NCBI GenBank assembly: GCA_964464695.1
Contig: CAYXKW010000005.1
Location: 8,677-72,676, forward strand
Direction of reading: 5' to 3'
Source: an uncultured Candidatus Saccharibacteria bacterium
GTDB taxonomy: Bacteria > Patescibacteriota > Minisyncoccia > Phycocordibacterales > UBA5272
DNA length: 64,000 nt
Within the stretch, counting starts at the first letter, position 1; every line of letters starts with the position of its first letter. Under the pieces are notes generated by a model, which saw nothing but the letters and a program-made list of their open reading frames with translations, did no database searches and was not told where the DNA came from. The position numbers and the translations under genes were made by a program. This document shows, one piece after another, positions 10,024-54,559 of the stretch.

Positions 10024-10031
10024 GAGAGGTA

Positions 10032-14250: not shown

Positions 14251-14306
14251 TGCTAATCTCCTGTAATTAGAACTACAAATAAGACTACAGGAACACAACG
14301 ACTGAG

Positions 14307-14837: not shown

Positions 14838-14876
14838 TATTTACTGTATAAGTTTAGTATACTAGATACCATACTC

Positions 14877-25466: not shown

Positions 25467-27683
25467 CTATTTCTTCGGAGCAGCAAGAAGTTGCTTAATA
25501 TATTCATCAATTTCTTTTGCAATTGTTGGATTCTTCTTTTTCTCTTCATTGAGAATTTCAATAGCAAGATTTATTTGTCCTGATGAAACAATCCCACTTA
25601 ACACATCTGGATCAAAACTAGTGTCTTGTCCTTTTGAAGCAGCATATGCTTTAGCTTCTTTATACTTTCCATTGTACGCCGCACTGATCATCATCCACTT
25701 CAATGCGTCATTACATGTGATAGAAAGATCATACGTTTGACGCCCAAGAGCATAGGCTTGATCGAACTTCTTCTGAACAAGATACGCACGAGTAAGGTCA
25801 AATGCAATGAGTTGCTTGTTCGGAGCAAGAACCATAGCGTCCTTGAGAACTCTTTCTGCATTTACTGAATCCCCTACACCATTGAAGAACATACCATAAA
25901 TAGAGAGCATTCTGACATCATTTTTATTAGCTTCGTAAGAAATATTAATATCATTAACGGTAGCTAAAATAAGATTATTTAAGGCTTGTGTTATCAGTTG
26001 TCGCTCTCCCTGAGGAATTTCTTCTGGAATCTTAATTTGTGACATACGAATTGTCATTTGTAAGAATTGCTCACGCGCCTCAATACTCCCAAGCGTATTC
26101 ATGTTAATTGCATTGATAAAATTATCCTGCTGAATTTTTACTTTATCTTGGAATGGCTTATTAGGATCTGTTTGGACAATACTCATTGCCTCAATAACCA
26201 TTTTATTTACAAGGAGAGGTCTGTAGTTAAGGAAATAGAACGTTACAAGTAAAGCTATACCAATTATCGGAGCAACTAACAAGTTCATTTGATCCTTATC
26301 AAACAATACCTTCCCATGATGCTCTCCTCCTGCCTTAGTACGAGATGTGATGTACGCAAGTAGTGCAAAGAAGAGGATGTAACTTGTTAAGTTGTCGAAT
26401 ACAAAGAAGTTGTGAATGAAATACCCTGCGAGCATACCGGTTAATATAGCTTTTTCTGAAAGCGACATCTGATTTTCTCGCCTCCACATGAACCAAAGTG
26501 TTACACCATACAATGAGAGGTAAGTAAGGAGTCCGAGTGCCCCTGCTGCTACAAGCCAGTCAAAGAATACATTGTGAGAGCGGTCATACCACGGCTCTAG
26601 GTTACACATGTTATTTGGCAAGAACTTGCGTGCAAAGACATAACTAAAGTTATCTTGACCATATCCTAGAATTGGTCTTTCTTTCCATGCTTCGTAACTA
26701 ATCTTCCACATTGAGAGACGACTTGCGCCAGTAATATCATTTGGTGAAATTGTAGCAATACGCGCCAAAACAGTATTTGATTTTACAAAACTAGAATCCT
26801 TAAAAACAAAGATTGAAGCAAGCGCAATTACCCCAATAACTGTTGCGATAGCGAAGTTCTGAAGTACAACACCTCTTTTCTTCCAGGCAATAATACCGCA
26901 TGTAATAAAACCTCCAACAGCTAATCCAATCATAGCTCCACGAGTACCTGATAAAAGTACACCTAGAATATTCATGATAATCAAAACTGGGTAAAACCAT
27001 TGTTTCTTTGGATTCTTTGACTGTGACCAAAGTAGGGCAGCAATAAAGACGTGCATTAAGCAGTACACTCCAAAATATGCAGAGTTACCAATCGTTGCAT
27101 CGAGTCGATTGCTACTCATGTGAATCGGGAAACGTGCAGCGAACCATGCTCCAGCACTTGGAAAGAGATTGTACAATAGCTGACCTTTCACCCCAAACAA
27201 CTGCGCATACCCATAAAGTACAATTAGTATGTCCGCCGCTAAAAATATCTTCAACATTTTTCGCCACTCTTCAAGCGACCGAATCATCACAGTAAGTACA
27301 AAGAAATATGCAAAGAAGTGAATATGCCCTACGAATCCTTCCATTCTTTCAAAATTACTCCACATACTCTTCTCTCTATCAACACCAAATAAATCTGCAA
27401 GGAGAAGTACAATAATGAAAAGCCCGTATGCAATCATTATTGGAGACTTTCTAATGTTAATTCTATACGAAGAATCAGAAAGAGCGAGAATTGCCCAGCC
27501 AGCCAAAGCTACCTCAACGAGTATTCTAAAGATAATATTTTTCCCTGAAATAAACGGGAAAAACATCCCTGTTCCTGTAAACCAACTTATGACGTCCAAT
27601 TTTCCACCATCTGCCACATGGAGCACGATAAATGGAATGATCGCAAGACACACCCACACAACTTTCTTTATAATATTTTGCAT
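25467..27683 (-). CDS. O-antigen ligase/polymerase (Wzy_C)-like multi-TM protein with a C-terminal TPR-repeat domain
   Basis: About 12 TM segments with a Wzy_C-like loop (LLSGTRGAMIGLAVGGF). The C-terminal ~250 aa has TPR-like repeats (AYALGRQTYDL, KEAKAYAASKG). Confidence 0.55.
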   Translation of the reverse strand: MQNIIKKVVWVCLAIIPFIVLHVADGGKLDVISWFTGTGMFFPFISGKNIIFRILVEVALAGWAILALSDSSYRINIRKSPIMIAYGLFIIVLLLADLFGVDREKSMWSNFERMEGFVGHIHFFAYFFVLTVMIRSLEEWRKMLKIFLAADILIVLYGYAQLFGVKGQLLYNLFPSAGAWFAARFPIHMSSNRLDATIGNSAYFGVYCLMHVFIAALLWSQSKNPKKQWFYPVLIIMNILGVLLSGTRGAMIGLAVGGFITCGIIAWKKRGVVLQNFAIATVIGVIALASIFVFKDSSFVKSNTVLARIATISPNDITGASRLSMWKISYEAWKERPILGYGQDNFSYVFARKFLPNNMCNLEPWYDRSHNVFFDWLVAAGALGLLTYLSLYGVTLWFMWRRENQMSLSEKAILTGMLAGYFIHNFFVFDNLTSYILFFALLAYITSRTKAGGEHHGKVLFDKDQMNLLVAPIIGIALLVTFYFLNYRPLLVNKMVIEAMSIVQTDPNKPFQDKVKIQQDNFINAINMNTLGSIEAREQFLQMTIRMSQIKIPEEIPQGERQLITQALNNLILATVNDINISYEANKNDVRMLSIYGMFFNGVGDSVNAERVLKDAMVLAPNKQLIAFDLTRAYLVQKKFDQAYALGRQTYDLSITCNDALKWMMISAAYNGKYKEAKAYAASKGQDTSFDPDVLSGIVSSGQINLAIEILNEEKKKNPTIAKEIDEYIKQLLAAPKK

Positions 27684-29398: not shown

Positions 29399-29746
29399 AT
29401 GAAAATAGAAAAATTTGAAGACATCTACTCATGGCAAAAAGCCAAGTCTTTGTCTCTTTTTGTCTATAAAGTCTTCAGAACAAACAAAGACTATGCATTT
29501 CGAGACCAGATACAAAGGGCTAGCGTTTCTATATTAAATAATATTGCTGAAGGTTTTGAGAGAAAAAGCAACAAAGAGTTAAGTCACTTTCTTTTTATCG
29601 CAAAAGGTTCTTGTGGGGAAGTGAGATCAATGCTCTACCTTGCTCTAGAATTAGGATATATTTCTGAAAAAGATTTCCAAAAAATGTATACTGAGTGTAT
29701 CGAAATATCAAAAATGATGTCAGGACTTATAAAAACCCTAGTCTAA
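29399..29746 (+). CDS. four-helix-bundle protein, the TIGR02436 family often encoded in 23S rRNA intervening sequences
   Basis: FEDIYSWQKAKSLSLFVYKV ... ILNNIAEGFERKSNKE ... AKGSCGEVRSMLYLA are hallmark motifs. Confidence 0.8.
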   Translation: MKIEKFEDIYSWQKAKSLSLFVYKVFRTNKDYAFRDQIQRASVSILNNIAEGFERKSNKELSHFLFIAKGSCGEVRSMLYLALELGYISEKDFQKMYTECIEISKMMSGLIKTLV

Positions 29747-30681: not shown

Positions 30682-31497
30682 TTAAGAAGCCATCATCCTG
30701 CTGACCATGAATTTTGCAACCTTTTCATTGCCGGCGATGAGTGGATACTCACCTTTTGGATCGAAAGGCATCGTGCCGATTGAGTTACCTTCATGATCAA
30801 GGACAATTCCACCGGCGCCCTTAATGAGCGCATAAACTGCACCAATTTCTTCTGCACGAACAGAAATCCCACCCATACACGCAGAGATATCAGAAAGTGT
30901 GTACATGAGATTTCCGACAACAGAACCAGCACAACGAATGAAAACTTCTTCGGCAAATGTGGTGTAGGCTTTCATTCCTGCTTTGTAGAAAGTGTCGAGA
31001 TACACCGGAGTAGTCTTGTGAACTTCCCAATCAGGACTCAAGGTAACCTTGTCGCCATTGTGGTCAATAGTATCTTTCCCATCGAAGATAAAGAAGTTAC
31101 CCGTTGTGTGCTCAATCATTCCGGCAACCAGTACATCATCAAGTGTTGGTTGAAGTCCATTGAAAAAAGCAACAAGCGTTCCGAAAGGAAGCATTTCTTT
31201 ACCCCGCTTATAGTTGATGCTTCCATCGAGCGGATCCATCGCAAACGTGTAAAGCGGATTTTTGTGCGACGCACCGATATCCCCAGCTTCTTCAGAATAA
31301 ATTTGCACAGGCAGACCTCTCCCTTGAATATGACTCAGCACAGCCTCTTCAATGGCGACATCCATCAGGAGTGATTTATCCCCTTTGGAATTTGTCGTAC
31401 CTATCTCACCTTTCTGACTTGAGACACCCAAGAGGTACATGCGATGTGCAACGGAAAGAATTTTCTCAAGCTCTTGAACTAGATTGATTTGCATTCT
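30682..31497 (-). CDS. inositol-monophosphatase-family phosphatase (IMPase/SuhB-like); start chosen at MQINLVQ
   Basis: DPLDGS metal-binding motif and C-terminal GGISVRAEEIGAVYALIKGAGGIVLD. GC is ~45%, against ~34% in the flanks. Confidence 0.65.
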   Translation of the reverse strand, partial: RMQINLVQELEKILSVAHRMYLLGVSSQKGEIGTTNSKGDKSLLMDVAIEEAVLSHIQGRGLPVQIYSEEAGDIGASHKNPLYTFAMDPLDGSINYKRGKEMLPFGTLVAFFNGLQPTLDDVLVAGMIEHTTGNFFIFDGKDTIDHNGDKVTLSPDWEVHKTTPVYLDTFYKAGMKAYTTFAEEVFIRCAGSVVGNLMYTLSDISACMGGISVRAEEIGAVYALIKGAGGIVLDHEGNSIGTMPFDPKGEYPLIAGNEKVAKFMVSRMMAS

Positions 31498-31574
31498 GCT
31501 TTCCCCTTCATATGTAAAGTTATTTAACGAAAAAAGAACATATTTATTTTGGCATTTATTTCTGAATTTGTCAA

Positions 31575-31603
31575 TTGACAAATTAAGTTAAATATGCTAT
31601 AAT
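31575..31603 (+). promoter_or_regulatory. consensus sigma70-type promoter TTGACA-N17-TATAAT
   Basis: ttgaca at 31575-31580, a 17-nt spacer, tataat at 31598-31603. The -35 sits inside the perfect 10-bp palindrome gtcaattgac. An SD-like aaggaaaa precedes the ATG at 31663. Confidence 0.55.
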
Positions 31604-31662
31604 ATATATACCTTTAAGGTCTGATTCCGCACAGTTTGCGGGGCTCTTTAACAAGGAAAAGC

Positions 31663-32385
31663 ATGAGCAATCTCAAGTGGCCAATTTTCACAGCCGAAAG
31701 CGTCTTCCAAGGCGTTCGCGACCTCGGCATCATGTCGTGGCCTCGTCTCTCTGATCCGGTTGCTATCACGGAATATTTGCGTGACGCGAGTTCGGATCAA
31801 TTGAAGACGTACGAACGCTTCGCCCCGAAGAGTTCGGTGGTTTACCACAAGAACCCGCACAACGGAACAACGTTCGATGGGTTCAAGGTGGACTTCAAGC
31901 CCTACGCCTGCGTCTTCGCACTGATTGACGGTATGGTGCCGGTTACTGCCGAGTGGAAACATGGCAACGATCGCATCACCCTCGTCCCAGTCTGTGGCGT
32001 CCCCGGTAAAACCGAAGATAGCTTCACAACTCTGACCGAGAAGATGTACGCTGTTGGTTTGCGTGAATGGGAAGAAGAAACGGGCACCAAGCTGAAGAAC
32101 CTGGTCCCACTTTCCGGCCCCGAAGGCATCTACTCGACGGTGCGCAACTGCAAGGTGCAGTGCTTCCCCTTCTTGGGTGAAGTCGAGGACAATGTCGTCC
32201 AAGGACCGACCAAGTTCGACGACACCGAGCATTTGAAGATGGTTCTCATTCCGCTTCCGGAATGGATCCAGCTCATCACAAGTGTTGAACTGTGGGCACA
32301 GAACCCAGACTTCGGTCTGGAAGCCTGCACGCGAGACGTGACATGGGCAGCCCTCCACAAAATGGGCCGCCTCCAACTGGTCTAA
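31663..32385 (+). CDS. NUDIX hydrolase, high GC (~55%); a horizontally acquired gene
   Basis: NUDIX box ...EKMYAVGLREWEEETGT. Uniformly GC-rich codons in a ~34%-GC genome. A consensus promoter lies upstream and a strong terminator downstream. The overlapping minus-strand ORFs are GC-induced artefacts. Confidence 0.65.
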   Translation: MSNLKWPIFTAESVFQGVRDLGIMSWPRLSDPVAITEYLRDASSDQLKTYERFAPKSSVVYHKNPHNGTTFDGFKVDFKPYACVFALIDGMVPVTAEWKHGNDRITLVPVCGVPGKTEDSFTTLTEKMYAVGLREWEEETGTKLKNLVPLSGPEGIYSTVRNCKVQCFPFLGEVEDNVVQGPTKFDDTEHLKMVLIPLPEWIQLITSVELWAQNPDFGLEACTRDVTWAALHKMGRLQLV

Positions 32386-32581: not shown

Positions 32582-33550
32582 ATGAAAACAGCACTCGTTT
32601 GTGGAGCAGGAGGTTTTATTGGAGGACATCTTGTAAAACGTCTCAAAGATGAAGGTTTTTGGGTTCGCGGTGTCGACTTAAAAAAGAACGAGTACTCAAA
32701 GTCAAATGCTGATGAATTTATTATCGGAGATCTTCGTGATCAAAAACTTTGCGAGACTATTCTTGATAAGTCGTTCGATGAGGTGTACCAACTAGCTGCT
32801 GATATGGGTGGTGCTGGCTATATTTTTACTGGCGAGCACGATGCTGATGTTATGCATAATTCTGCAACTATTAATCTCAACATTCTCCACTACGGACAAA
32901 AAATTGGGATCAAAAAAATATTCTACTCTTCTTCTGCATGTATCTACCCTGAGTACAATCAACTTGATCCAGAAAATCCAAAGTGCTCAGAAGAGTCAGC
33001 TTACCCTGCGGCTCCAGACAGTGAATATGGTTGGGAGAAATTATTTAGTGAAAGACTCTACCTTTCATACAACAGAAACTATAAAATGGATGTTCGTGTA
33101 GCGCGATTCCATAATATTTTCGGGCCAGAAGGTACGTGGGAAGGAGGTAAGGAAAAAGCCCCAGCTGCGATGTGTAGAAAAATTGCAGAAGTGAAGAATG
33201 GCGGCGAAATAGAAATCTGGGGAGACGGTCGTCAAACGCGATCATTCCTCTATATCGATGAATGTTTAGAAGGTGTACGAAGACTTATGGATTCTGATTT
33301 CTTAGGACCTGTAAACATTGGATCAGATGAGATGGTAACCATCAATCAGCTCGCTGAAATGGTTGCAGAAATTGCTGGTAAAAAAATTACTATCAATCAC
33401 ATTCCTGGACCACTTGGCGTACGTGGAAGAAACTCAGACAATGAGCTCATTGAGAAAAAAATTGGATGGAGACCACACTTCTCACTAAAAAATGGTCTTG
33501 AGATTACTTATACATGGATACACAATCAAGTGGAAGCAAAAAAGAAATAA
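32582..33550 (+). CDS. GDP-mannose 3,5-epimerase (GME-like SDR)
   Basis: Block-by-block match to plant/bacterial GME as recalled: ADMGGAGYI, FYSSSACIYPEYNQL, EYGWEKL, RFHNIFGPEGTWEGGKEKAPAAMCRK, WGDGRQTRSFLYIDEC, VNIGSDEMVTINQLAEM, HIPGPLGVRGRNSDN. Confidence 0.75.
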   Translation: MKTALVCGAGGFIGGHLVKRLKDEGFWVRGVDLKKNEYSKSNADEFIIGDLRDQKLCETILDKSFDEVYQLAADMGGAGYIFTGEHDADVMHNSATINLNILHYGQKIGIKKIFYSSSACIYPEYNQLDPENPKCSEESAYPAAPDSEYGWEKLFSERLYLSYNRNYKMDVRVARFHNIFGPEGTWEGGKEKAPAAMCRKIAEVKNGGEIEIWGDGRQTRSFLYIDECLEGVRRLMDSDFLGPVNIGSDEMVTINQLAEMVAEIAGKKITINHIPGPLGVRGRNSDNELIEKKIGWRPHFSLKNGLEITYTWIHNQVEAKKK

Positions 33551-34101
33551 TCCCTTGGGAACTTTTAAGCGAGGAAAATATTTCCCCAAGCCATTACTTT
33601 CCTCTCTTTAAGCAGAAGGTTAAAATTCATAACGGAAAAGTTTTTGATGATTACTACATTACGAAGCTTGTAGATGCAACTATGGTGGTTGCAGTTACAA
33701 AAGAAAAAGAGTTACTCATGGTGAGACAGTGGCGACAAGGTACTTTAGAAATTACTCTTGAACTACCCTGTGGTCAAAATGATCCACATGAAAGCACTCT
33801 TGATGCTGCAAAGCGAGAGCTACACGAAGAAACTGGTGCAAATGTCATATCAGAACTTGTTCCACTTGGAAAAGTTTCTCCAATCACTCCCAAAGCAACG
33901 CTTCGTATCTACGGTTATTTTTGTACAATTGATTCAACGCTTGAGAAGCAAGACTTAGATGACACTGAGAACATTGAGGTAATTAAAGTCCCTTTCACTG
34001 ATATCGATAAGCTCCTCCTTTCGGGAGAAATCAACGCGGCAGATACTATCTCTTTTATCTCATTAGCACGAATAAAGTTTCCTAAATTATTTTTACTATA
34101 A
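33514..34101 (+). CDS. NUDIX hydrolase, of the nucleotide-sugar or ADP-ribose pyrophosphatase type
   Basis: NUDIX box ELPCGQNDPHESTLDAAKRELHEETG. The true start may be an internal codon, because the ORF overlaps the upstream gene by 37 nt. Confidence 0.7.
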   Translation: MDTQSSGSKKEIIPWELLSEENISPSHYFPLFKQKVKIHNGKVFDDYYITKLVDATMVVAVTKEKELLMVRQWRQGTLEITLELPCGQNDPHESTLDAAKRELHEETGANVISELVPLGKVSPITPKATLRIYGYFCTIDSTLEKQDLDDTENIEVIKVPFTDIDKLLLSGEINAADTISFISLARIKFPKLFLL

Positions 34102-34112
34102 TATATAAACAA

Positions 34113-34973
34113 ATGAAAACAATTCTTGTAACAGGTGGGGCTGGATTTATTGGTTCAAACCTTATCAAAAAACTTCGAACGCATTACCCGAACGCTTCTA
34201 TTATATCTTTAGATAACTACTTTACAGGGAAAGAGGGAAACCATACCCCTGGTGTCACTTACAAGATTGGGCACACTAAGGATATAGCGCTTCACATAAC
34301 TGAGCAACCTGACTTGGTATTTCATCTTGGTGAGTACTCACGAGTCGAAAAAAGTTTTGATGATATGAAGACGGTTTTTGATTTTAATAAAAACGGAACA
34401 TTTGCAGTCCTTGAATTTTGCCGTGAAAATAAATCAAAATTAATTTATGCTGGGTCTAGTACTAAATTTGGTGACGGAGGTCTCGGTCGTGATCAGAGCC
34501 CATATGCTTGGACAAAAGCAACTAATACTGAACTCGTGATTAACTATGGTAATTGGTTTAACCTTAATTATGCAATCACATATTTCTATAACGTATACGG
34601 ACCAGGAGAAATTACAACTGGAGACTACGCAACTGTCATTGGAATATTTAAAGAAAAGTTTAAAAATAAAGAAAAACTTAATGTAGTTTCTCCAGGGTCA
34701 CAACTTCGAAATTTCACACATGTTGACGATATTGTGCGTGGCCTCATTCTAATTGGAGAAAAAGGTGAAGGAGATGAGTATGGACTTGGATCTGATCACG
34801 CATACAGTATCTTAGAAATCGCCAAGATGTTTAATCTTCCTATCGAAATGTTACCTGAAAGAAAAGGTAACCGCATGAGCGCTTCTGTTGAAACTCACAG
34901 GACAAAAAATGAGCTTAATTGGCAATCTGAAAAAAAAATTGAGGATTACATTAACAATATTATTAACGAATAG
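34113..34973 (+). CDS. NAD-dependent epimerase/dehydratase family protein
   Basis: ILVTGGAGFIGSNLIKKL Rossmann motif. Confidence 0.7.
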   Translation: MKTILVTGGAGFIGSNLIKKLRTHYPNASIISLDNYFTGKEGNHTPGVTYKIGHTKDIALHITEQPDLVFHLGEYSRVEKSFDDMKTVFDFNKNGTFAVLEFCRENKSKLIYAGSSTKFGDGGLGRDQSPYAWTKATNTELVINYGNWFNLNYAITYFYNVYGPGEITTGDYATVIGIFKEKFKNKEKLNVVSPGSQLRNFTHVDDIVRGLILIGEKGEGDEYGLGSDHAYSILEIAKMFNLPIEMLPERKGNRMSASVETHRTKNELNWQSEKKIEDYINNIINE

Positions 34974-34981
34974 TTACATTT

Positions 34982-35923
34982 CTACTTTCCTAATTCCTTA
35001 GAGAGAAGATTAATCTCACGAAGGATTCCTTCGAGTGAAGTGGTGGTTGGTTTATATCCGAGTAACTTAGCAGCTTTCTTACTTTTAGAAGCATAAATAT
35101 TTTTTGAAGGAGAAGATTTTGCTTTTGAGATATCCTTCTTAATCTCAAACTCAAGACCATATTTTTTATTCATTGATGCGAGTAAATCAAACTTGGAAAT
35201 TGGTTTTTTGCTGTAAACATCGAAGTAATCATTGATTTTCTTTTTTGCAATAATACTTTTTATGAGCACAAGTAAATCTTTTGGAGTAACATAATCACGA
35301 ACCATATTCTGACTATTTGTCGCAAGAACTTTTTTGGTTTGTATACAGTTTACAATCTCTGTCATTAAAAATAATGAGTCAGTATCAACCAAAGAGCTAA
35401 AAAAAGCAAACACTCGTAAGTCAACTATGTTCAAACTTGTGAGTGACCGATGTTTTGCCTCAGCATTTATTTTCGCAATAGTATAGGATTCACGTTGCCC
35501 GATAAATCCACCAGAAAGAGTTGTTACCGTACTCTCATCTTGTCTCTCTTCAACACTGTTTCCATAGACCGCCCCGCTACTAATATTTATATAGTGTGCC
35601 TTTGGATGCTGCTGCAGATATGTAATAACAAGTGAATCGACTTCTTCAGTAACCTTAAAAATCTCAAGAGGATTTTCTTTAAGGATTGAAATACCACTAA
35701 TACCTGTACAGTTAATAATTACGTCATATTCCCCTTCATTAAATTCACCAAAGGAATGAATACCATACTTGGCACTTTTAGGAACATCTCTTATAATCGT
35801 AGTAATTTTTTCTTGTGAACGAGAGAATAGGAAAAGTGTGTATCCTTTTTTCTCTAAAAAAAATTCTCTTAATAATGACCTCCCTATGTATCCTGTTACA
35901 CCTAAAATGGCAATCTTTTTCAT
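34982..35923 (-). CDS. NAD(P)-dependent SDR (epimerase/reductase); a candidate 4-keto reductase for the CDP-sugar pathway
   Basis: IAILGVTGYIGRSL Rossmann motif. Sits immediately downstream of the TPP enzyme. Confidence 0.55.
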   Translation of the reverse strand: MKKIAILGVTGYIGRSLLREFFLEKKGYTLFLFSRSQEKITTIIRDVPKSAKYGIHSFGEFNEGEYDVIINCTGISGISILKENPLEIFKVTEEVDSLVITYLQQHPKAHYINISSGAVYGNSVEERQDESTVTTLSGGFIGQRESYTIAKINAEAKHRSLTSLNIVDLRVFAFFSSLVDTDSLFLMTEIVNCIQTKKVLATNSQNMVRDYVTPKDLLVLIKSIIAKKKINDYFDVYSKKPISKFDLLASMNKKYGLEFEIKKDISKAKSSPSKNIYASKSKKAAKLLGYKPTTTSLEGILREINLLSKELGK

Positions 35924-35925
35924 AC

Positions 35926-37707
35926 TTATGAATTCTTTAATATTTTCTTCAAACTTTCTAAATATGTTTTTTGTGTATCATCGAGATATGGAGCTTGATC
36001 ATCTAGTGCATGACCGTAGACCATCTTCGGTTGTAGTGGTGCGTGCATATCAATATCCACTTCAATTAGCATTGGACCTTTATGTGCAATAATCTGTGCT
36101 AACACCTCATCGTTTTCTTGAATACTTGAAATCTTCTTGTAGTCTAAACTGTACGCTCCTGCCAACTTTTTAAAATCAGGATAACCATAACCTATGACCG
36201 TTGATTGATAATTCTTGTTGAAATAAAGATCTTGGAATTCTCGTACCATGCCAAGTGATTTATTATGCATAATAAAAAGTTTCATTGGAATCTTATTACG
36301 ACTTACGGTTTCTAACTCTTGTATGTTTATTTGAATCCCCCCATCACCACTAATAACTACTAGGTCAGATTTTTGGTCAGCATACCAGGCACCAACAGCT
36401 GCTGGTAAAGCGAATCCCATAGCCCCCATCCCTCCTGAAAAGAGTAGCCGTTGACCGTTTTTTATTTTCCAGGACTGAGCACACCACATCTGGTTCTGGC
36501 CAACATCAACTACAATATTTGTGGATGCTGGAGTTTGTAAAGAAAGTTCACGTAAAAAGGTATTCGGGTTAATTGATGCTTTATATTCACTAATTCGAGT
36601 AAATTTATTTTGTACAGCATGTATAAAAGTAAACCAACTAAGTTTTTTCGCAGTTGTTATATGTTGTACTTCATTAAAAAAAGTTTTTAAATCAGTCTCA
36701 ATGGAAAGTTTTGATTTGATCGAGTAGTTTATCGAACTACTGTCGATATCAACATGAACAACTGTTGCTCCAGGATTAAAAAATTTTGCATCCCCTGTTT
36801 GTCTAATATCAAGCCTCGTCCCGAGAGCAATAATTAGGTCCGCGTTTGCAAACGTTATATTAGCATCTCTGTTTCCATTTGACCCAATATAGCCAACGTA
36901 AAGTGAGGAATTTTGGTATGAATCTATTCCCATGAGAGATGAGATAACTGGTAGATTATTTCTAGAAACAAACTGTGCTAATTCTTTGGTAGCCCCAGAA
37001 AGTCTTACTCCATTACCTGCAAGAACTAGTGGTGCTTTTGATTTTGTAAGGAGGGTCTCAAGAGCTTTAATTTTAGAAGAAGGAATTTTTTTGGTGAATT
37101 TTTTATCTTTATTTTCTAAAATTGCATGTTCCTTTGAGCCAAAAAAATGTCTGACGGTGGTCACATCTATCATTGTTCTCTGAAGATTAATAGGGATATC
37201 GACCACAACAGACCCAGACCTTCCTCGTTTCATAACATAATACGCTTTCTCTAACTCATACATTACATCCTCTGGATTACACACCATGACCGCATACTTT
37301 GTTAATGTCTTCACGACACTTACAATATCAGTTTCTTGAAACCCTTCTTGTCGAACATTTTCATTTTTCTTGAGGTTATCAGTATGTACTTGCCCCAAAA
37401 TAAACATAGCTGGGGTAGAGTCAAAATAACAACTTCCAATTGCGGTTATGAGATTAGTTGCTCCTGGTCCGCTTGTTGCAATTGCAACCCCAAAGTTCTG
37501 ACTTGTTCTCCCGTATCCTTCAGCTGCAAAGCCAGCTGCTTGCTCATGATGCATAGGAACACATGTAATACCAGAACGCTTACTAATCGCGTCTTCAAGA
37601 AACGCAATCATACCTCCGCTCAAATCAAAGACATGGGTAGTTTTCTTCTCAACCAGAAAATCAACAATAAGATCCGCACATAGTTTTTTTTCCTGTACTT
37701 TTTTCAT
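35926..37707 (-). CDS. thiamine-pyrophosphate-dependent enzyme of the acetolactate-synthase large-subunit family (YerE-like two-carbon branching enzyme candidate)
   Basis: TPP-binding motif GDGGIQINIQELETVSRNKIPMKLFIMHNKSLGMV. N-terminal TPP_enzyme_N-like region. 593 aa. Confidence 0.7.
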   Translation of the reverse strand: MKKVQEKKLCADLIVDFLVEKKTTHVFDLSGGMIAFLEDAISKRSGITCVPMHHEQAAGFAAEGYGRTSQNFGVAIATSGPGATNLITAIGSCYFDSTPAMFILGQVHTDNLKKNENVRQEGFQETDIVSVVKTLTKYAVMVCNPEDVMYELEKAYYVMKRGRSGSVVVDIPINLQRTMIDVTTVRHFFGSKEHAILENKDKKFTKKIPSSKIKALETLLTKSKAPLVLAGNGVRLSGATKELAQFVSRNNLPVISSLMGIDSYQNSSLYVGYIGSNGNRDANITFANADLIIALGTRLDIRQTGDAKFFNPGATVVHVDIDSSSINYSIKSKLSIETDLKTFFNEVQHITTAKKLSWFTFIHAVQNKFTRISEYKASINPNTFLRELSLQTPASTNIVVDVGQNQMWCAQSWKIKNGQRLLFSGGMGAMGFALPAAVGAWYADQKSDLVVISGDGGIQINIQELETVSRNKIPMKLFIMHNKSLGMVREFQDLYFNKNYQSTVIGYGYPDFKKLAGAYSLDYKKISSIQENDEVLAQIIAHKGPMLIEVDIDMHAPLQPKMVYGHALDDQAPYLDDTQKTYLESLKKILKNS

Positions 37708-37713
37708 GCTATT

Positions 37714-38484
37714 TTATTTCCACATTTTCCATGGCGCATTCCCTGTACTCCAAATCTCTTCAAGTTTATTTTTATCATTAAGAGTATCCATTGGTTTCCA
37801 AAATCCATCGTGAGCATATGCTTTCAACTTATGATCTTTTGCAAGTTGCTCTAGTGGACCTTTTTCAAAAATGGTTGTGTCATTTTCTAGGTATGAAAAA
37901 ATCTCAGGTTCTAGCACAAAAAAACCACCATTAATTTTTACTTTATTATCAGTCTTTTCACTAAACGCTGTAACCTTAGAGTCGTTATCGATAGTCAATG
38001 TTCCAAACCTACCCTCAGGTGCAACTGCAGTCACTGTTACTGTTCCTTTATTTTTTTTATGAAAATTAACCAATTCGGTTATATTCACATCTCCTACTCC
38101 GTCTCCATAGGTAACCATGAATGTTTCATTGCCAATATATTCTTGAATCCTTTTAATACGACCGCCTGTCATTGTGCTTGCTCCTGTTTCCACAAGTGTC
38201 ACTTTCCATTTCTCTGCGTGACTTTTATGAACTGTCAAAGACCCGTCTTCTAAATTAAGAGTCACATCACTGTTATGTAACATATGATCATTAAACCAGT
38301 CTTTTATATAATGGCTTTTATACCCAAGACAGATGACAAATTCATTATAACCGTGATGCGAGTATATTTTCATGATATGCCAAAGAACTGGTTTGCCACC
38401 AATCTCAACCATAGGTTTTGGTTTAATGAGTGTTTCTTCATTTAATCTTGTTCCAAGTCCGCCTGCAAGTATCACAACTTTCAT
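37714..38484 (-). CDS. rfbF: glucose-1-phosphate cytidylyltransferase
   Basis: MKVVILAGGLGTRLNEETLIKPKPMVEIGGKPVLWHIMKIYSHHG closely matches the RfbF N-terminus. Confidence 0.8.
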   Translation of the reverse strand: MKVVILAGGLGTRLNEETLIKPKPMVEIGGKPVLWHIMKIYSHHGYNEFVICLGYKSHYIKDWFNDHMLHNSDVTLNLEDGSLTVHKSHAEKWKVTLVETGASTMTGGRIKRIQEYIGNETFMVTYGDGVGDVNITELVNFHKKNKGTVTVTAVAPEGRFGTLTIDNDSKVTAFSEKTDNKVKINGGFFVLEPEIFSYLENDTTIFEKGPLEQLAKDHKLKAYAHDGFWKPMDTLNDKNKLEEIWSTGNAPWKMWK

Positions 38485-38486
38485 AA

Positions 38487-39557
38487 TTATTTAAAAAAGG
38501 AATTAATTTGATTATTAGTAAATTCTACTACATCTTCATTTTTTTCATAATAATTTTTATACCAATCAAAAGTAAGAGTTATTGTATCTCCAAAGCTAAC
38601 TCTTGGTTCCCAGCCCAGCTGACGAAACGTTTTATTGATATCTAACGTTAGCAGACCTGCCTCATGTTTACCTGTTGTATCAGGCTCAATTACATATAAA
38701 AATTCAGGGACAACTTTCTTTGTTTCTTTCAGTAAACTTTCAACACTTGCAAAATTAGTAGTGTGTGGACCAAAATTCCATGCCTGAGAAAGATCTATTT
38801 CATTTTCATGTAGCCGTTTAGCTAACATTAAATACCCCGATAATGGCTCAAGTACATGTTGCCAAGGTCGCACTGATTCAGGGTTTCTTATTTCAACACT
38901 ATTTTTATCATGATATATCGATCTAACAACATCAGGAATGAGTCGATAGTCTGACCAGTCGCCACCTCCTATAACATTTCCAGCGCGTGCAATAGCGACA
39001 AGTGTCGAATGCTTCGTGCCAAAATCTTTTGGATTAAAGAAAGATTGAAGATACGAGTTCGTGATAATATCTGCCGCTGCTTTACTTGCACTATAAGGAT
39101 CATACCCACCAAGAGGATCACTTTCGCGATATGGATAGTGCCATTCCTTATTTTCATACACCTTGTCTGTTGTGATGACCACAGCACTCTTTACACACTC
39201 AACTTCACGTATCGCTTCAAGAATATTTGTAGTCCCCATACAGTTTGTGGAAAAGGTTTTTACAGGATCCTTATAGCTAGTTCTTACAATTGGCTGAGCC
39301 GCTAGGTGAAAAACAATTTCTGGTTTTTCCTTTTCAAAAATCTTTTTCATTTCCTCTCCATCTCGAATATCAGTGAAATAATTAGTTACTTTTTTTTCAA
39401 TGCCGAGTGCATCAAAAATATTAGGAGTTGTGGCAGGACGAAGAGAAACACCAACTACATCTGCTCCCCAAGTAAGCAATATCTGAGTAAGCCACGACCC
39501 CTTAAATCCAGTATGGCCGGTAATAAGGATTTTTTTGTTTGTATAAAATTCTTTCAT
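38487..39557 (-). CDS. rfbG: CDP-glucose 4,6-dehydratase
   Basis: KKILITGHTGFKGSWLTQIL plus SDR YxxxK (YSASKAA). 356 aa, adjacent to rfbF. Confidence 0.8.
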   Translation of the reverse strand: MKEFYTNKKILITGHTGFKGSWLTQILLTWGADVVGVSLRPATTPNIFDALGIEKKVTNYFTDIRDGEEMKKIFEKEKPEIVFHLAAQPIVRTSYKDPVKTFSTNCMGTTNILEAIREVECVKSAVVITTDKVYENKEWHYPYRESDPLGGYDPYSASKAAADIITNSYLQSFFNPKDFGTKHSTLVAIARAGNVIGGGDWSDYRLIPDVVRSIYHDKNSVEIRNPESVRPWQHVLEPLSGYLMLAKRLHENEIDLSQAWNFGPHTTNFASVESLLKETKKVVPEFLYVIEPDTTGKHEAGLLTLDINKTFRQLGWEPRVSFGDTITLTFDWYKNYYEKNEDVVEFTNNQINSFFK

Positions 39558-39709
39558 TACTATATTATATTTCGATTATATCCTTTATTACACTCGTTAA
39601 CAAACTTAAATTTTATATAAAATAGCATGTATTTACGGTAATCTATCCGAAACATAACCCTACGGAAAATATCTTTTACTCTCTTACTGTTGCCATTAGG
39701 AAACAAAAA

Positions 39710-39737
39710 GCCCAGAACAAAGTTCTGGGTAGTGGTC
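39710..39737 (-). terminator. intrinsic terminator for 39779..40318 (cccagaac/gttctggg stem, then a T-run on the minus strand)
   Basis: Seen directly in the sequence. Confidence 0.6.
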
Positions 39738-39778
39738 ACAGTCTCTTGATGATACTGCAACACATTTAAAAGACTATT

Positions 39779-40318
39779 TTAGTCACACAAAAGAATTCCA
39801 TCAATCAGGTACTGTTTAACTCGACGGAGAATGTACTTATGGTGAGCAAGAGTATTGTCTGGCAGATCATCTAGTGAAAAAAAACTTGCCCCCTGCTGAT
39901 TAATAAAAACAGAGGTCAGATAAGCGATGTGTACCAAGGAACATTCCACACGAGTTGGATTACTATTTGGACCATCTTCCTCAATCCCTCTGTAAACGCC
40001 CATCCAACCAATAGGTTGAGGTTTAGTTACCGTCACACCGAAGTTTTTTGTCAGCTCACCCGAAACGAGCTTCTCCCGACGCTCAGGGATTGTTTCCCAA
40101 GCATTCCACACTGAGCCCGGATGGTGCCATCCTTTGAATTCAAAATCGTCCCTATACACAAGGAAAACTTCGTTTCTTTCATTAAGAACAATGAGCTCAA
40201 TCGGAACTGTTGGGAAAATCTTTACCAGTGCATGCCACAGGGAGCCACGGATATCAGTGCTAACTGCTTTTCCCAAAAGAGTCGTCAGTTGAAGTTTCTC
40301 TTCTTGGTTGAGAGCCAT
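39779..40318 (-). CDS. hypothetical protein, possibly a degenerate NUDIX-like fold; GC (~43%) somewhat above the local background
   Basis: 179-aa ORF with its own terminator. GWHHPGSVWNAWETIPERREKLVSGEL is only loosely NUDIX-like. Confidence 0.4.
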   Translation of the reverse strand: MALNQEEKLQLTTLLGKAVSTDIRGSLWHALVKIFPTVPIELIVLNERNEVFLVYRDDFEFKGWHHPGSVWNAWETIPERREKLVSGELTKNFGVTVTKPQPIGWMGVYRGIEEDGPNSNPTRVECSLVHIAYLTSVFINQQGASFFSLDDLPDNTLAHHKYILRRVKQYLIDGILLCD

Positions 40319-40488
40319 GTAGAACCTCTTTCAATAGTAAATAAAAAAAGAAAGACAGAGCCGAAAGCTCTCATTATTTATTATATAACAAATATAAGAT
40401 TTGTCAATTATCAACGCCCTTACCAAAACGCCTCGACAACTTTTTTGTTACATGATTACACATCCTCAAATTTGAGTTCTTAGTGAAG

Positions 40489-40517
40489 TTAATTCATTAT
40501 ATTTACTATGATATAAT
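40489..40517 (+). promoter_or_regulatory. extended -10 promoter (TGaTATAAT) upstream of the DegT/wzx/GT operon
   Basis: tgatataat at 40509-40517, 43 nt upstream of the ATG at 40560. Confidence 0.35.
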
Positions 40518-40559
40518 ATCGAAATACACTAAGCGGTATCATTTAATACATTAATTACT

Positions 40560-41783
40560 ATGGCAAAAGCAAAACAAGCAAAATTACGAGTTCCTTATGG
40601 ATTTTCAGTACACGGACAAGAAGAGATTGATGCAGTGGTAGAAGTTTTACGTGGTAATACTGCTATCGGTGACAAAACAACTGAATTTGAAGCAAAGGTT
40701 GCTAAGATGTTCGGTAAAAAATTTGGCGTCATGGTTAACTCTGGCTCTTCTGCTAATCTTCTTGCATTTGAATTACTCAACCTTCCTAAAGGTTCTGAAG
40801 TAATAACCCCTGCTCTTACATTTGCAACTGTTGTTGCACCTATTGTTCAAAAAGGACTCATTCCTGTTTTTGTTGATGTTGACCCAACAACATACTTAGT
40901 AAATATCGAACAAGTAAAAAGTGCCATCACTAAAAAAACAAAAGCACTCATGATTCCTCTACTTATGGGGAATATCCCAAACATGAAGGAGCTTGCTGCG
41001 ATTGCAAAAAAACATAAACTTTTCTTTATCGAGGATTCGTGCGATACTCTTGGCGGAAAATTTGAAGGTAAACCTACTGGATTGCACTCTGACATCTCGG
41101 TGACTAGTTTTTATGGATCACATATAATTAATGGTGCAGGAGGAGGAGGAATGATCATGGTGAATGATCCAAAGTGGGAACAGCGACTTAAGGTTCTTCG
41201 TGGCTGGGGTCGTCAATCATCTCTCTATGGAGAGAAAGGTAATTCTGAACTTCTTAAGAATCGTTTCAATTATAAACTTGGAGGCATCCCTTACGATAAC
41301 AAATTTATTTTTAGTGAGGTTGGATACAATTTTCTTCCTCTTGAGATTTCTTCTGCATTTGCGCTTGCACAAATGAAACGACTCCCAGGTTTTTTGGAGA
41401 AAAGAAGAGTAAATTTTGAGAATCTTATGAGCTACATTGGGAGTAAGGATAAATACTTTATACTACCGACGCAGACACCAGATACAGAAACTGCGTGGTT
41501 AGCATTTCCTATTATCATTAAACCAAAGTCCCCTTTCACAAGACTTGAAATTGTAACGTATCTTGAGGAAGCAAACATTCAAACACGTCCAGTTTTTGCT
41601 GGTAATATTCTTAAGCAACCAGGATATCGTAAAATAGAAAATAGAAAAATTAGTGCGGCATTTCCAAATACAGACACCATCATGAAAAATGCTTTTGTGT
41701 TGGCATGTCACCATGGACTAGATGAGCACCAAATCAAGTACGTGCAAGATACAATGGATACATTTCTTGCAAAGTATAAATAA
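40560..41783 (+). CDS. DegT/DnrJ/EryC1/StrS-family PLP/PMP enzyme with His replacing the Schiff-base Lys; a sugar 3-dehydrase (E1/ColD-like) candidate
   Basis: Family signatures GVMVNSGSSANLLA and DSCDTLGG. At the usual SFxxxK position the sequence is SFYGSHIINGAGGGG, with H instead of K as in CDP-6-deoxy-4-hexulose 3-dehydrase and ColD. Confidence 0.65.
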   Translation: MAKAKQAKLRVPYGFSVHGQEEIDAVVEVLRGNTAIGDKTTEFEAKVAKMFGKKFGVMVNSGSSANLLAFELLNLPKGSEVITPALTFATVVAPIVQKGLIPVFVDVDPTTYLVNIEQVKSAITKKTKALMIPLLMGNIPNMKELAAIAKKHKLFFIEDSCDTLGGKFEGKPTGLHSDISVTSFYGSHIINGAGGGGMIMVNDPKWEQRLKVLRGWGRQSSLYGEKGNSELLKNRFNYKLGGIPYDNKFIFSEVGYNFLPLEISSAFALAQMKRLPGFLEKRRVNFENLMSYIGSKDKYFILPTQTPDTETAWLAFPIIIKPKSPFTRLEIVTYLEEANIQTRPVFAGNILKQPGYRKIENRKISAAFPNTDTIMKNAFVLACHHGLDEHQIKYVQDTMDTFLAKYK

Positions 41784-41850: not shown

Positions 41851-43146
41851 ATGAAGTACTCCGAAATCACAAACTACGTACGTGAAAAAATAAAACACCC
41901 AGGAGTACAAAAACACACCAAAAACATGGGGTGGATGTTTTTTGCAAAAATTGCAAGTATGATTATTGCATTTATTGCAACTGCATATATCGCAAGAAAT
42001 CTTGGGCCAACAAATTATGGAGAACTAAGTTACGCAATTAGCTTTGTTGGCATTTTTTCATTCCTTGCTTCTCTTGGTGTTGAACAAATCTTATACCGTG
42101 ACGCAATACGTAATCCGGAAAAAAGAGATGTGTACCTCGGCAGCGCAATCGCTTTACGTATTATTACATCACTAGCAACAGCATTACTGTGTGTCTTAGT
42201 TGCGCTCCTAGTGTCCCCTAAAGATGTTTCACTTCTGCTTATTATTATAATAAGTATGACGTTTGTAAGTGGATCGTTTGGTCTCCTTACAACTGAATTT
42301 CAGGCGGATGCACAATCGAAATATCCATCAATTTTTTCAATCTTTATAGTTATTGTTTTAAATCTTTTAAAAATACTGGTTATTTACTTTGATAAAGGTG
42401 TCATTTATTTAGCAGGGGTAATACTTCTTGAACCGATTCTCTACTCAGCAATGTTTATGTATCTCCGTTCAAAATTTTACGGGAGCCTGCAAAACCTTAG
42501 CTTCGATAAAGGGATAGCTATTCAACTTTTAAAAGATTCTTACCCACTTATATTTGCTTCTGCATTCTTTTTAATTTATGCAAGGATTGACCAAGTAATG
42601 ATTAAAAACATGATGGGAGCTCAATATGTAGGGCTATATGATGCAGCGGTTAGAATGTCAGAAATTTCATATTTTATTCCAAATATAATTGTTGCAGCAC
42701 TGTTTCCAGCAATAATAAATGCTAAAAAAATATCGGACACATTGTACTTTAAAAGACTCAAGAAAATACTTATTTTACTACTTGTGGTATCAGCTGGAAT
42801 TGCTTGTGTAACAGCACTCCTATCTAAATACTTTACACTAATCATCTTTGGTACAAAATTTTTAGAAACAGTACCTATCCTAGAGATTTACGTATGGAGC
42901 AATATAGGCGCTGCGCTTAATCTACTTATTCAACAAATTCTTATTGCTGAAAATTTTACCAAAAAAGTTACTTTAACAATCTTTTTTGGTATGGCAATCA
43001 ACGTAATACTTAACTTTATTTTTATACCTCGTTTCGGTATGGCTGGCGCTGCATATGCAAGTCTCATCTCGTATTTCATTCCTTTTCTTACACTGTTTAT
43101 GTTCAAGAATACTAGATTCCTCTTTATTAATATACTAAAAAGTTAG
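41851..43146 (+). CDS. wzx: Wzx-type polysaccharide/O-antigen flippase (MOP superfamily)
   Basis: 431 aa, ~12 TM segments, polysacc_synt-like N-terminus (FFAKIASMIIAFIATAYIARNLGPTNYG). Confidence 0.7.
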   Translation: MKYSEITNYVREKIKHPGVQKHTKNMGWMFFAKIASMIIAFIATAYIARNLGPTNYGELSYAISFVGIFSFLASLGVEQILYRDAIRNPEKRDVYLGSAIALRIITSLATALLCVLVALLVSPKDVSLLLIIIISMTFVSGSFGLLTTEFQADAQSKYPSIFSIFIVIVLNLLKILVIYFDKGVIYLAGVILLEPILYSAMFMYLRSKFYGSLQNLSFDKGIAIQLLKDSYPLIFASAFFLIYARIDQVMIKNMMGAQYVGLYDAAVRMSEISYFIPNIIVAALFPAIINAKKISDTLYFKRLKKILILLLVVSAGIACVTALLSKYFTLIIFGTKFLETVPILEIYVWSNIGAALNLLIQQILIAENFTKKVTLTIFFGMAINVILNFIFIPRFGMAGAAYASLISYFIPFLTLFMFKNTRFLFINILKS

Positions 43147-52343: not shown

Positions 52344-53150
52344 CTATATTCTTACCCATCCGTCAAATTCTACGTCTTCATTTGGAGCTTTCCACCATGG
52401 CGAAGCGTACCATTTTTTAAGTGCGACAATTTTCTTATTTGAATTAGTTGAGAGCCACGCGCCCCACCATGAGTACGTACTGTTTGCAATGATAAAATTT
52501 TGACCAAGTGTCATAAGCATCAACTCCTCATAATCTGTAAAGCCTTGACCGCTTACCATGGACATTGGTCTATTTATTGCATTTTCTAACCATTCTTTGT
52601 TATCTGAAAATCCAAATATTTCACAGTCTTCATCAAAATGAGTTAAGGCTTCTTTGTAGTATGGTTCCTCAATCCTTGTGAATGTTTTATTCAAGATATG
52701 GTCAGTGCGCCTCGCATGAATCATAAGTGGTTTGTTTGCCTGAAGAATTCTTTGTTCCCATTCTTTGTACTTGTCACTTTTTTCTCGGAGAGTTACTTCT
52801 TTTAGAATAATTTCTCTTATTTTTTTAAAATATTTTTCTGAGACAAAATAACCATCTGCATAATAATTATCTTTTTGTAGATTTACTGCCACATAACGAA
52901 CACGTCTTGTCACGTCAATTTTATTGATAATACGAGTTAGTAATTTCTGCTTTGGATATTGTTGTACAGTTCTAATTGAATCACTAATTAAAAATCTATC
53001 GAGAAGATACTCACGTTTTGTGTATTTTGTATTCACTTCAAAAAAACTTGTATCGAAAACTACATCCTTCCCTTCCTCCATAAGAGCTCTACCGTATGCA
53101 TATTGAAACAACTGGTTTCCTAAACCTCCTTGAATAGCTACTGTAATCAT
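52344..53150 (-). CDS. GT11 alpha-1,2-fucosyltransferase-family glycosyltransferase
   Basis: N-terminus MITVAIQGGLGNQLFQYAYG is the GT11 signature. C-terminal NSTYSWWGAW. Confidence 0.8.
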   Translation of the reverse strand: MITVAIQGGLGNQLFQYAYGRALMEEGKDVVFDTSFFEVNTKYTKREYLLDRFLISDSIRTVQQYPKQKLLTRIINKIDVTRRVRYVAVNLQKDNYYADGYFVSEKYFKKIREIILKEVTLREKSDKYKEWEQRILQANKPLMIHARRTDHILNKTFTRIEEPYYKEALTHFDEDCEIFGFSDNKEWLENAINRPMSMVSGQGFTDYEELMLMTLGQNFIIANSTYSWWGAWLSTNSNKKIVALKKWYASPWWKAPNEDVEFDGWVRI

Positions 53151-54554: not shown

Positions 54555-54559
54555 GATAA

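Follow-up and report, generated by a model that had tools for sequence, protein, structure and literature searches.

A predicted Candidate Phyla Radiation glycan locus that combines a cysteine-less 3-dehydratase homolog with yersiniose-type branching genes and a putative GDP-L-galactose module

Introduction

The yersiniose A pathway, which is also that of Yersinia pseudotuberculosis O:6, is represented by the reference loci of Pseudomonas simiae (L021) and Yersinia bercovieri (L022), with the gene order ddhD-ddhA-ddhB-ddhC-yerE-yerF. To our knowledge, deoxygenation of CDP sugars at C3 has for more than 30 years been described only by way of the E1/E3 radical system and its two iron-sulfur clusters (AscC/AscD, DdhC/DdhD, RfbH/RfbI). 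Here we describe positions 32582-41783 of a 64,000-nt stretch of DNA from an uncultured Candidatus Saccharibacteria bacterium (contig CAYXKW010000005.1; the whole stretch is called the window), in which homologs of DdhA, DdhB, DdhC, YerE and YerF are encoded, and in which the DdhC homolog, a DegT-family protein, lacks three of the four cysteines that bind the E1 cluster. We consider it probable that this is the sugar-nucleotide core of a Wzx-dependent glycan locus of a Candidate Phyla Radiation (CPR) bacterium, where CDP-sugar 3-deoxygenation of the ColD type and YerE/YerF branching would operate beside a GDP-L-galactose module.

E1 and SpnQ have a four-cysteine [2Fe-2S] site, which takes electrons from E3 or from other reductases; ColD has no iron-sulfur (Fe-S) site, its enamine is hydrolyzed, and its pyridoxamine 5'-phosphate (PMP) is regenerated from glutamate (PMC8987622). 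Reductase-free C3-dehydratases of this kind, recycled through glutamate and pyridoxal 5'-phosphate (PLP), are established for GDP-hexoses and GDP-heptoses (PMC8987622; PMC10440746). Over 200 enzymes resembling YerE have been predicted from the similarity of gene clusters (Krug et al. 2024, cited in PMC12247030). The only bacterial GDP-mannose 3,5-epimerase (GM35E, or GME) to have been characterized, that of Methylacidiphilum fumariolicum, has been linked to envelope glycans.

As judged by its genes, the cluster described here appears to be a further member of the large known set of YerE-like branched-sugar clusters, and differs in its CPR host and in an Fe-S-free 3-dehydratase without E3. Saccharibacteria and other CPR bacteria are obligate episymbionts whose surface chemistry is almost unknown, and our literature search found nothing on Saccharibacteria or Patescibacteria together with CDP-glucose or dideoxyhexoses. 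The branched dideoxyhexose, L-galactose, methylation and acylation that the locus predicts would be targets for glycan analysis and for work on host recognition.

Organization of the Locus

The limits of the interval 32582-41783 coincide exactly with the start codon of the epimerase gene and the stop codon of the DegT gene. All genes named in the original prediction are present, at or near the expected positions, and their E-values of 1e-60 to 1e-140 exclude chance matches. Domains were sought with Pfam in every window open reading frame (ORF) of at least 150 aa, and the curated cut-offs of NCBIfam were used for equivalog calls; this scope applies to the domain searches reported below. The genes of the CDP-sugar part, and the flippase gene beside them, are as follows:

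40560-41783, plus strand: DegT-family protein, 407 aa, putative Cys-less PMP-dependent NDP-4-keto-6-deoxyhexose 3-dehydratase of E1/ColD type (PF01041, 269 bits)
41851-43146, plus strand: Wzx-type flippase (PF01943, 101 bits)
38487-39557, minus strand: CDP-glucose 4,6-dehydratase RfbG/DdhB (TIGR02622, 479 bits against a cut-off of 278, full length)
37714-38484, minus strand: glucose-1-phosphate cytidylyltransferase RfbF/DdhA (TIGR02623, 393 bits against a cut-off of 300, full length)
35926-37707, minus strand: YerE-type thiamin diphosphate (ThDP)-dependent carboligase, 593 aa, with a predicted acyl branch at C4 (three ThDP-enzyme domains)
34982-35923, minus strand: candidate NAD(P)H reductase of YerF type, 313 aa, putative side-chain ketoreductase (full-length YerF similarity)

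The four minus-strand genes, in the order rfbG-rfbF-ThDP enzyme-313-aa short-chain dehydrogenase/reductase (SDR), are packed tightly, with spacers of 2-6 nt, and the DegT gene and the flippase gene that follows it are divergent from them. From the other side, three plus-strand genes (for the epimerase, a NUDIX hydrolase and a 286-aa SDR) converge on the 313-aa SDR gene. The identities of RfbF and RfbG are secure, both being well over their equivalog cut-offs.

The locus thus shares with the yersiniose A pathway homologs of DdhA, DdhB, DdhC, YerE and YerF, a Wzx-type glycan context and the yerE-yerF adjacency, with protein sizes (593 and 313 aa) close to those of the reference (571 and 310 aa). 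It differs in that DdhD (E3) is missing, and in that its DdhC homolog is without three cysteines of the cluster site and without the first ~30 residues. In addition, the identities are just 32-36%, the gene order is rearranged so that the ddhC-like gene is divergent, and there is an extra ORF with a NUDIX fold. The CPR host is a further difference: CPR bacteria have a single membrane and are not known to have lipopolysaccharide, and therefore the glycan would not be an O-antigen.

The 3-Dehydratase Homolog

E1 is the closest match of the DegT protein (3BCX, 262 bits), followed by ColD (173 bits). The His of its SFYGSH sequence lies at the position of E1 H220, as seen both from a comparison of 3BCX with the H220K mutant 3BB8 and in a MAFFT alignment, and E1's SFY..H motif region is retained around it. 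The claim that a His takes the place of the Schiff-base Lys is therefore confirmed, while a Lys at this position, which had been named beforehand as the finding that would count against the claim, is not borne out. At the cluster site the E1 sequence DCYCAPGCDNTC is replaced by QSSLYGEKGNSELLKN. The E1 motif, whose spacing is reportedly C-X57-C-X1-C-X7-C (Agnihotri et al. 2004), involves four cysteines; the DegT protein has only two Cys in total, and the one that is retained, at the first motif position, is also a Cys in ColD. With the E1/E3 systems the window protein has in common the best sequence match, the CDP context, His220 and the SFY..H region, but it is without the CxC...C motif, no E3 accompanies it, and it does not reach the cut-off of the RfbH equivalog model NF011936 (366 bits against 423). 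Another Cys-less protein scores 359 bits with this model, in contrast to the 742 and 600 bits of two Fe-S-type E1 controls.

The likeness to ColD, and to the GDP-heptose C3-dehydratases of Campylobacter jejuni HS:5/HS:11, lies in the His for Lys, the lack of Fe-S ligands, the lack of a reductase gene nearby, and the predicted mechanism (enamine hydrolysis, with PMP formed from an amino acid). Unlike these enzymes, the window protein is tied to rfbF and rfbG, with no gmd in the window and no GDP-heptose genes, and it belongs to a separate clade. The extent of this clade was estimated from a scan of 1.84 billion cluster representatives (50% identity clusters), from which the 150 best matches were taken. 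These were aligned with the window protein, E1 and ColD, and of the resulting 153 rows 81 have the His and no motif cysteines, and 68 have the motif. In a neighbor-joining tree of 141 of the representatives, the window protein falls inside a purely Cys-less clade with 45 members. The CxC...C motif is missing from the window protein and from all five CPR orthologs examined; the E1 homologs that are encoded in loci with YerE in Bacillota, Clostridiales and Gastranaerophilales keep it. Some members of the Cys-less clade are fused to domains of 4,6-dehydratase, RmlC, or RmlC and RmlD. One member, at 50% identity, belongs to an operon of the type rfbF-rfbG-ddhC-like, and another adjoins genes for a nucleotidyltransferase that is not of RfbF type (290 aa, possibly RmlA-like) and for an RmlC-family protein.

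A large sister clade without cluster ligands, yet found in CDP-glucose operons, suggests a simpler route of deoxygenation. We tentatively propose that the Cys-less proteins (at least 45 clusters at 50% identity) may form a third class of NDP-4-keto-6-deoxyhexose 3-dehydratase, independent of both reductase and Fe-S cluster, with CDP sugars, and for some members probably dTDP sugars, as substrates, and that CPR bacteria, which have a minimal redox metabolism, may use it to make a branched 3,6-dideoxyhexose for the cell surface alongside L-galactose. If this is true, such enzymes would be useful for making branched and 3,6-dideoxy sugars chemoenzymatically, with no oxygen-sensitive proteins involved.

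The search for a reductase partner gave no ORF in the 64-kb window with the domain set of E3/DdhD (Fer2, FAD_binding_6 and NAD_binding_1), and tblastn with two E3 sequences (Yersinia and Pseudomonas) had no match either there or in the CPR loci. A protein with no cluster ligands at three of four positions, as in the DegT protein and in its whole clade, has no evident entry point for electrons.

Among the Fe-S-type E1 homologs, five proteins of 750-830 aa (P0299, P0305, P0320, P0322 and P0384) have an insertion of ~400 residues between the first and second motif cysteines. The insertion ends with '...HNC' and looks like an intein in the Fe-S binding loop.

The Branching Enzymes

The 593-aa protein matches all three domains of ThDP enzymes (PF02776, PF00205 and PF02775) and has the GDG motif in the form ISGDGG. 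Of the solved structures, 5AHK is by far the closest (387 bits); the acetolactate synthases of plants, yeast and bacteria score 275 bits at most, and JanthE (8RPH) scores 254. The protein is 36% identical to YerE of Y. bercovieri (344 bits). The sequence of 5AHK matches a 568-aa protein at 100% identity and a protein of Pseudomonas protegens at 83%, and stands at the head of a family in which P. simiae and five Yersinia species are represented. We presume 5AHK to be the structure of PpYerE, which is consistent with the mapping of V479 onto the GMV motif if a 20-residue tag is allowed for; it has been published that a PpYerE structure exists, and that there are yerE homologs in P. simiae WCS417. 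With TIGR00118, the acetohydroxyacid synthase (AHAS) profile, the window protein scores 448 bits against a cut-off of 538, and it is far below the cut-off of every other AHAS model. The genuine YerE of Y. bercovieri likewise fails TIGR00118 (407 against 538).

The original prediction had taken this protein for a YerE-like enzyme and had named, as evidence to the contrary, a grouping with IlvB and the presence of IlvN or IlvC nearby. Neither was seen: the protein groups with YerE, and no IlvN or IlvC domain was found in the 64-kb window. The assignment as a YerE-like carboligase rather than IlvB is therefore supported, and acyl transfer to a ketosugar is the predicted reaction.

The 313-aa SDR had been suggested as a candidate reductase of the YerF type, and this holds. 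It is 32% identical over 303 aa (E-value 1e-60) to the 310-aa product of the gene directly after yerE in Y. bercovieri (L022:11713-12645), is a full-length homolog, and is encoded directly downstream of the ThDP gene. Its best match among solved structures is only 29 bits.

Proposed Pathway and Alternatives

The chemical steps, the amino donor and the length of the branch given here are predictions from the protein sequences. RfbF would make CDP-D-glucose, which RfbG would convert to CDP-4-keto-6-deoxy-D-glucose. On this substrate the His-containing DegT protein would form a PMP ketimine and eliminate the 3-OH group. Release of the enamine in the manner of ColD, with hydrolysis to CDP-4-keto-3,6-dideoxy-D-glucose and ammonia, seems the most likely next step, because the protein is without [2Fe-2S] ligands and no E3 is encoded; an amino acid, for example L-glutamate, would serve as the donor that converts PLP back to PMP. 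The YerE-type enzyme would then add an activated acyl group at C4. We take acetaldehyde derived from pyruvate as the default, because there are no genes for a donor-supplying aldolase or dehydrogenase, the GDG motif is canonical, and YerE is a closer match than JanthE. Finally, reduction of the side-chain ketone by the YerF-type SDR would give a CDP-yersiniose-like 3,6-dideoxy-4-C-(1-hydroxyalkyl)hexose. The yersiniose-like CDP route of the original prediction is thus upheld insofar as there is a homolog for each step and the yerE-yerF order is kept, but the original prediction overlooked that the classical route needs E3 and an Fe-S-containing E1, and also did not recognize the CPR host.

Several points weigh against this pathway. 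We found no published report of ColD-like chemistry on CDP sugars, nor of any biochemistry of Cys-less members on them, and in sequence the DegT protein resembles E1 more than ColD. The tree that places it in a Cys-less clade is crude and was rooted on ColD alone. The identity of 5AHK with PpYerE is presumed, in keeping with the related literature and the family match, and the donor specificity of ThDP enzymes of this kind varies, with ErwE and JanthE using longer 2-oxo acids. SpnQ acts as an aminotransferase when no reductase is supplied (PMC8987622), and therefore a different outcome is conceivable for the DegT protein as well. E3 is also absent from the 15-21 kb around the Fe-S-type E1 genes of four other loci (L008, L010, L015 and L016) and only 64 kb of the present genome is visible, so that the lack of E3 is weak evidence alone, and the argument for a reductase-free enzyme rests on the loss of the cysteines.

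The same facts bear on the alternative that the pathway is the classical one, with the DegT protein acting like E1 or SpnQ and the glucoseen being reduced by a reductase, or a ferredoxin/flavodoxin system, encoded elsewhere in the genome. The closer match to E1 (262 against 173 bits) favors it, as does the fact that SpnQ has no dedicated E3 and draws on general cellular reductases (PMC8987622), and as do the four loci where an Fe-S-type E1 gene has no E3 beside it and the visibility of only 64 kb of the genome. But other residues stand in place of three of the four cluster cysteines, not only in the window protein but in the whole clade, and the RfbH cut-off, which Fe-S-type E1s pass, is failed; we regard this alternative as distinctly improbable. 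Still less can be said for a DegT protein that is off-pathway, or that is a 4-aminotransferase or 4-dehydrase, with the ThDP enzyme branching CDP-4-keto-6-deoxyglucose directly and the 3-OH group kept. Transamination by SpnQ without a reductase (PMC8987622) and the position of the gene, divergent from the rfbG-rfbF-ThDP-SDR operon, would be compatible with this. Against it, aminotransferases need the Lys that is here a His, the SFY..H motif region is that of E1, the gene is kept beside the module in five related loci (L002, L004, L005, L007 and L009), and the characterized YerE-type sugars in the literature are all 3,6-dideoxy; it is very unlikely.

The branch that the ThDP enzyme adds might not be the two-carbon unit of yersiniose but come from a longer or functionalized 2-oxo acid, as with ErwE, JanthE and MMAR_2332, to give an erwiniose-like, caryophyllose-like or new sugar. 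These enzymes resemble that of the window in being AHAS-like ThDP enzymes encoded beside deoxy-ketosugar genes and a reductase gene, and in the literature donor preference differs widely among YerE-like enzymes. With just 36% identity to the Yersinia enzyme, and with extra tailoring ORFs in sister CPR loci (C-methyltransferase-like and Gfo/Idh/MocA-like), a different branch is conceivable. However, the window has no aldolase or aldehyde dehydrogenase genes, which supply the donor of ErwE, the score of the protein with YerE proper exceeds that with JanthE (387 against 254 bits), and it has the canonical GDG in place of the CDG of JanthE. A longer branch is thus unlikely, although of all the alternatives it is the one to which we give most weight. 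An ordinary acetolactate synthase large subunit, serving branched-chain amino acid synthesis, was also considered for the ThDP enzyme and rejected. It would account for the 448 bits with TIGR00118 and for the label 'acetolactate synthase' that relatives carry in databases, but the protein, like Yersinia YerE, is below the curated AHAS cut-offs, its closest solved relative is of the YerE family, with a lead of 110 bits, there is no IlvN or IlvC in the window, and the gene has rfbF and the yerF-like gene as translationally packed neighbors on its two sides. The probability of such a function is close to nil, and a YerE-type carboligase acting after reductase-free 3-deoxygenation is the reading that we prefer.

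GDP-Sugar Genes

The second part of the predicted sugar-nucleotide core is represented by these genes:

32582-33550, plus strand: GDP-mannose 3,5-epimerase homolog, 322 aa (356 bits to Arabidopsis GME, 2C59)
50919-52295, minus strand: ManC, mannose-1-phosphate guanylyltransferase/mannose-6-phosphate isomerase (TIGR01479, 471 bits against a cut-off of 373)
48838-49905, plus strand: glycosyltransferase of fucosyltransferase family GT10 (PF18025, 86 bits; PF00852, 56 bits)
52344-53150, minus strand: glycosyltransferase of fucosyltransferase family GT11 (PF01531, 62 bits)

The epimerase homolog is 52% identical over 318 aa to the Arabidopsis enzyme (AtGME). Its S118, C120, Y149, K153, N178 and K192, and two Arg, correspond to S143, C145, Y174, K178, N203, K217, R243 and R306 of AtGME. 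The published residues that discriminate GM35E from GDP-fucose synthase (GMER) are all kept: the S/Y/K triad, the Cys acid, the Lys base (His in GMER) and the acidifying Arg (Lys in GMER), which lies in the sequence GVRGRNSDN and aligns with R306. The earlier assignment as GM35E is thus well founded. The window protein differs from that of Arabidopsis in length (322 against 377 aa), being without the N- and C-terminal extensions of the plant enzyme. Its place in a glycan locus is that proposed for the Methylacidiphilum enzyme, and it differs from both in its CPR host and in its pairing with GT10 and GT11 genes.

ManC and the fucosyltransferase-family genes of the original prediction do exist, but all three (ManC, GT10 and GT11) lie outside the stated interval 32582-41783. 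The claim that there is no Gmd/Fcl pair holds for the 64-kb window. There the Fcl model, whose cut-off is 500, scores highest with the epimerase itself, at 118 bits, and with a 287-aa SDR, at 32 bits; Gmd and Fcl may yet be encoded beyond the window. ManC would supply GDP-mannose, from which the epimerase homolog would make GDP-L-galactose, with GDP-L-gulose as a minor product, and the GT10 and GT11 enzymes may plausibly take GDP-L-galactose as donor. Fucosyltransferases are documented to accept this compound (PMC8787198), and by analogy its use here is a reasonable expectation, given ManC and the lack of Gmd and Fcl in 64 kb. The pairing of a bacterial GM35E with GT10 and GT11 enzymes makes the latter candidates for natural L-galactosyltransferases.

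Just upstream of the epimerase and NUDIX genes is a gene of the inositol monophosphatase (IMPase)/fructose-bisphosphatase family (30682-31581, minus strand), and between it and the epimerase gene there is a conserved ORF of 249 aa with no annotation (31636-32385, plus strand), of which a 51% identical copy adjoins the epimerase gene in L007. The plant L-galactose-1-phosphate phosphatase VTC4 is an IMPase-family enzyme, and the set of epimerase, nucleotide-sugar hydrolase and IMPase-family phosphatase recalls the plant L-galactose route, which may be coincidence.

NUDIX Proteins and the 286-aa SDR

Three further genes lie within the interval:

33514-34101, plus strand: NUDIX hydrolase, 195 aa (PF00293, 52 bits), overlapping the end of the epimerase gene by 37 nt
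39779-40318, minus strand: NUDIX-fold protein with a degenerate Nudix box, 179 aa (fold match), 5' of rfbG
34113-34973, plus strand: extended SDR of the NDP-sugar epimerase/dehydratase family, 286 aa (PF01370, 128 bits)

The NUDIX hydrolases of the original prediction are thus correct in part: the one at 33514-34101 is seen by Pfam, but the second, at 39779-40318, is a NUDIX protein at the level of the fold only. The best NCBIfam match of the 195-aa protein is a NudE-like model (61 bits, below cut-off). The 179-aa ORF has no match in Pfam or NCBIfam, and 12 homologs were found in all. Its AlphaFold2 model (mean confidence, pLDDT, of 83) matches GDP-mannose mannosyl hydrolase, RppH, MutT and CDP-Chase in Foldseek, with a probability of 1.0 and TM scores of ~0.5. 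As modeled, the protein may hydrolyze nucleotide sugars, or may be a binding protein without catalytic activity. It was considered as a substitute redox partner and rejected on account of the NUDIX fold with its degenerate box. The 286-aa SDR, with best PDB matches to proteins like UDP-glucose 4-epimerase (84 bits), is not conserved in the related CPR loci.

Related Loci

Relatives were sought with the ThDP enzyme in one genome per species. The scan gave seven loci at 64-76% identity, labeled as Saccharibacteria (two), Paceibacterota (two), simply 'bacterium' (two) and Bacteroidota (one), and all seven CPR-type loci are from metagenome-assembled genomes. The module is conserved across them at 64-88% identity. 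The two Saccharibacteria loci have long synteny with the window, from the glycan genes through the Wzy_C protein to TsaD (82-84% identical), and for this reason we regard the window as that of a CPR bacterium.

The conserved core basically consists of the gene for the His-containing DegT protein, divergent from rfbG, rfbF and the genes of the ThDP enzyme and the 313-aa SDR. The SDR gene is directly after the ThDP gene also in L002, L005, L006, L007 and L009; the 179-aa ORF is upstream of rfbG also in L003, L004, L006 and L009; and the flippase gene adjoins the 3-dehydratase gene in L002, L004, L005 and L009. The epimerase gene follows the SDR gene in L002 and L009, and in L007 a gene like that of the 287-aa SDR intervenes. 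The 738-aa Wzy_C protein is 63-70% identical and syntenic in L002 and L007, and a copy of the GT10 protein in L005 is 57% identical.

In four loci (L002:4785-7075, L004:4114-6403, L009:4662-6868 and L003:2-1881), two extra ORFs lie between the 3-dehydratase gene and the genes for the NUDIX-fold protein and RfbG. One encodes ~427 aa with an N-terminal Cys-rich motif and looks like a sugar C-methyltransferase, and the other encodes a Rossmann protein of ~300-335 aa that looks like Gfo/Idh/MocA. Their absence from the window suggests that the sugar of these relatives is tailored differently. In Gastranaerophilales (L010:6080-14568, L011, L013 and L015), two or three paralogous ThDP genes of YerE/AHAS type stand side by side, in L010 and L015 near Fe-S-type E1 genes, which hints at multiple or sequential branching reactions.

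Other Features of the Window

Elsewhere in the window are genes for glycosyltransferases of types GT2, GT-D, GT10 and GT11, three methyltransferases and one acyltransferase. Two further features belong to the glycan locus:

25467-27683, minus strand: membrane protein with Wzy_C/O-antigen ligase domain, 738 aa (PF04932, 77 bits), candidate polymerase, ligase or O-oligosaccharyltransferase
40380-40407, minus strand: perfect sigma-70 consensus (TTGACA-16-TATAAT, 12 of 12 positions; a consensus match only), in the divergent intergenic region 5' of the 179-aa ORF

A 10 of 12 sigma-70-like site precedes rfbG (39603-39575, minus strand), and there is a terminator-like hairpin downstream of the 179-aa ORF (39729-39711, minus strand). 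In a promoter scan of the window, the overall counts of such sites were not above those of shuffled controls.

Between two glycosyltransferase genes of the glycan locus there is a gene of the '23S rRNA intervening sequence protein' family (29399-29746; PF05635, 121 bits). Directly past the locus (53220-56548) are genes for a surface protein with lamin-tail and PKD domains and for a 662-aa coupling ATPase similar to TrwB/TraG/HerA. At the edge of the window (1450-6056), an AbiGi-like protein, a fusion of ParB-N and N6_N4 DNA methylase domains and a large serine recombinase have the look of a mobile element or a defense system. Finally, the region 7336-17352 resembles a block for lipid or secondary metabolism, which would not be expected in a reduced CPR genome. 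It encodes two AMP-binding enzymes, a ketoacyl-ACP synthase (KAS) III, a phosphopantetheinyl transferase, a fatty-acid hydroxylase, a homolog of the OleD-like 2-alkyl-3-oxoalkanoate reductase (147 bits, under the cut-off), an ATP-grasp protein and alpha/beta hydrolases.

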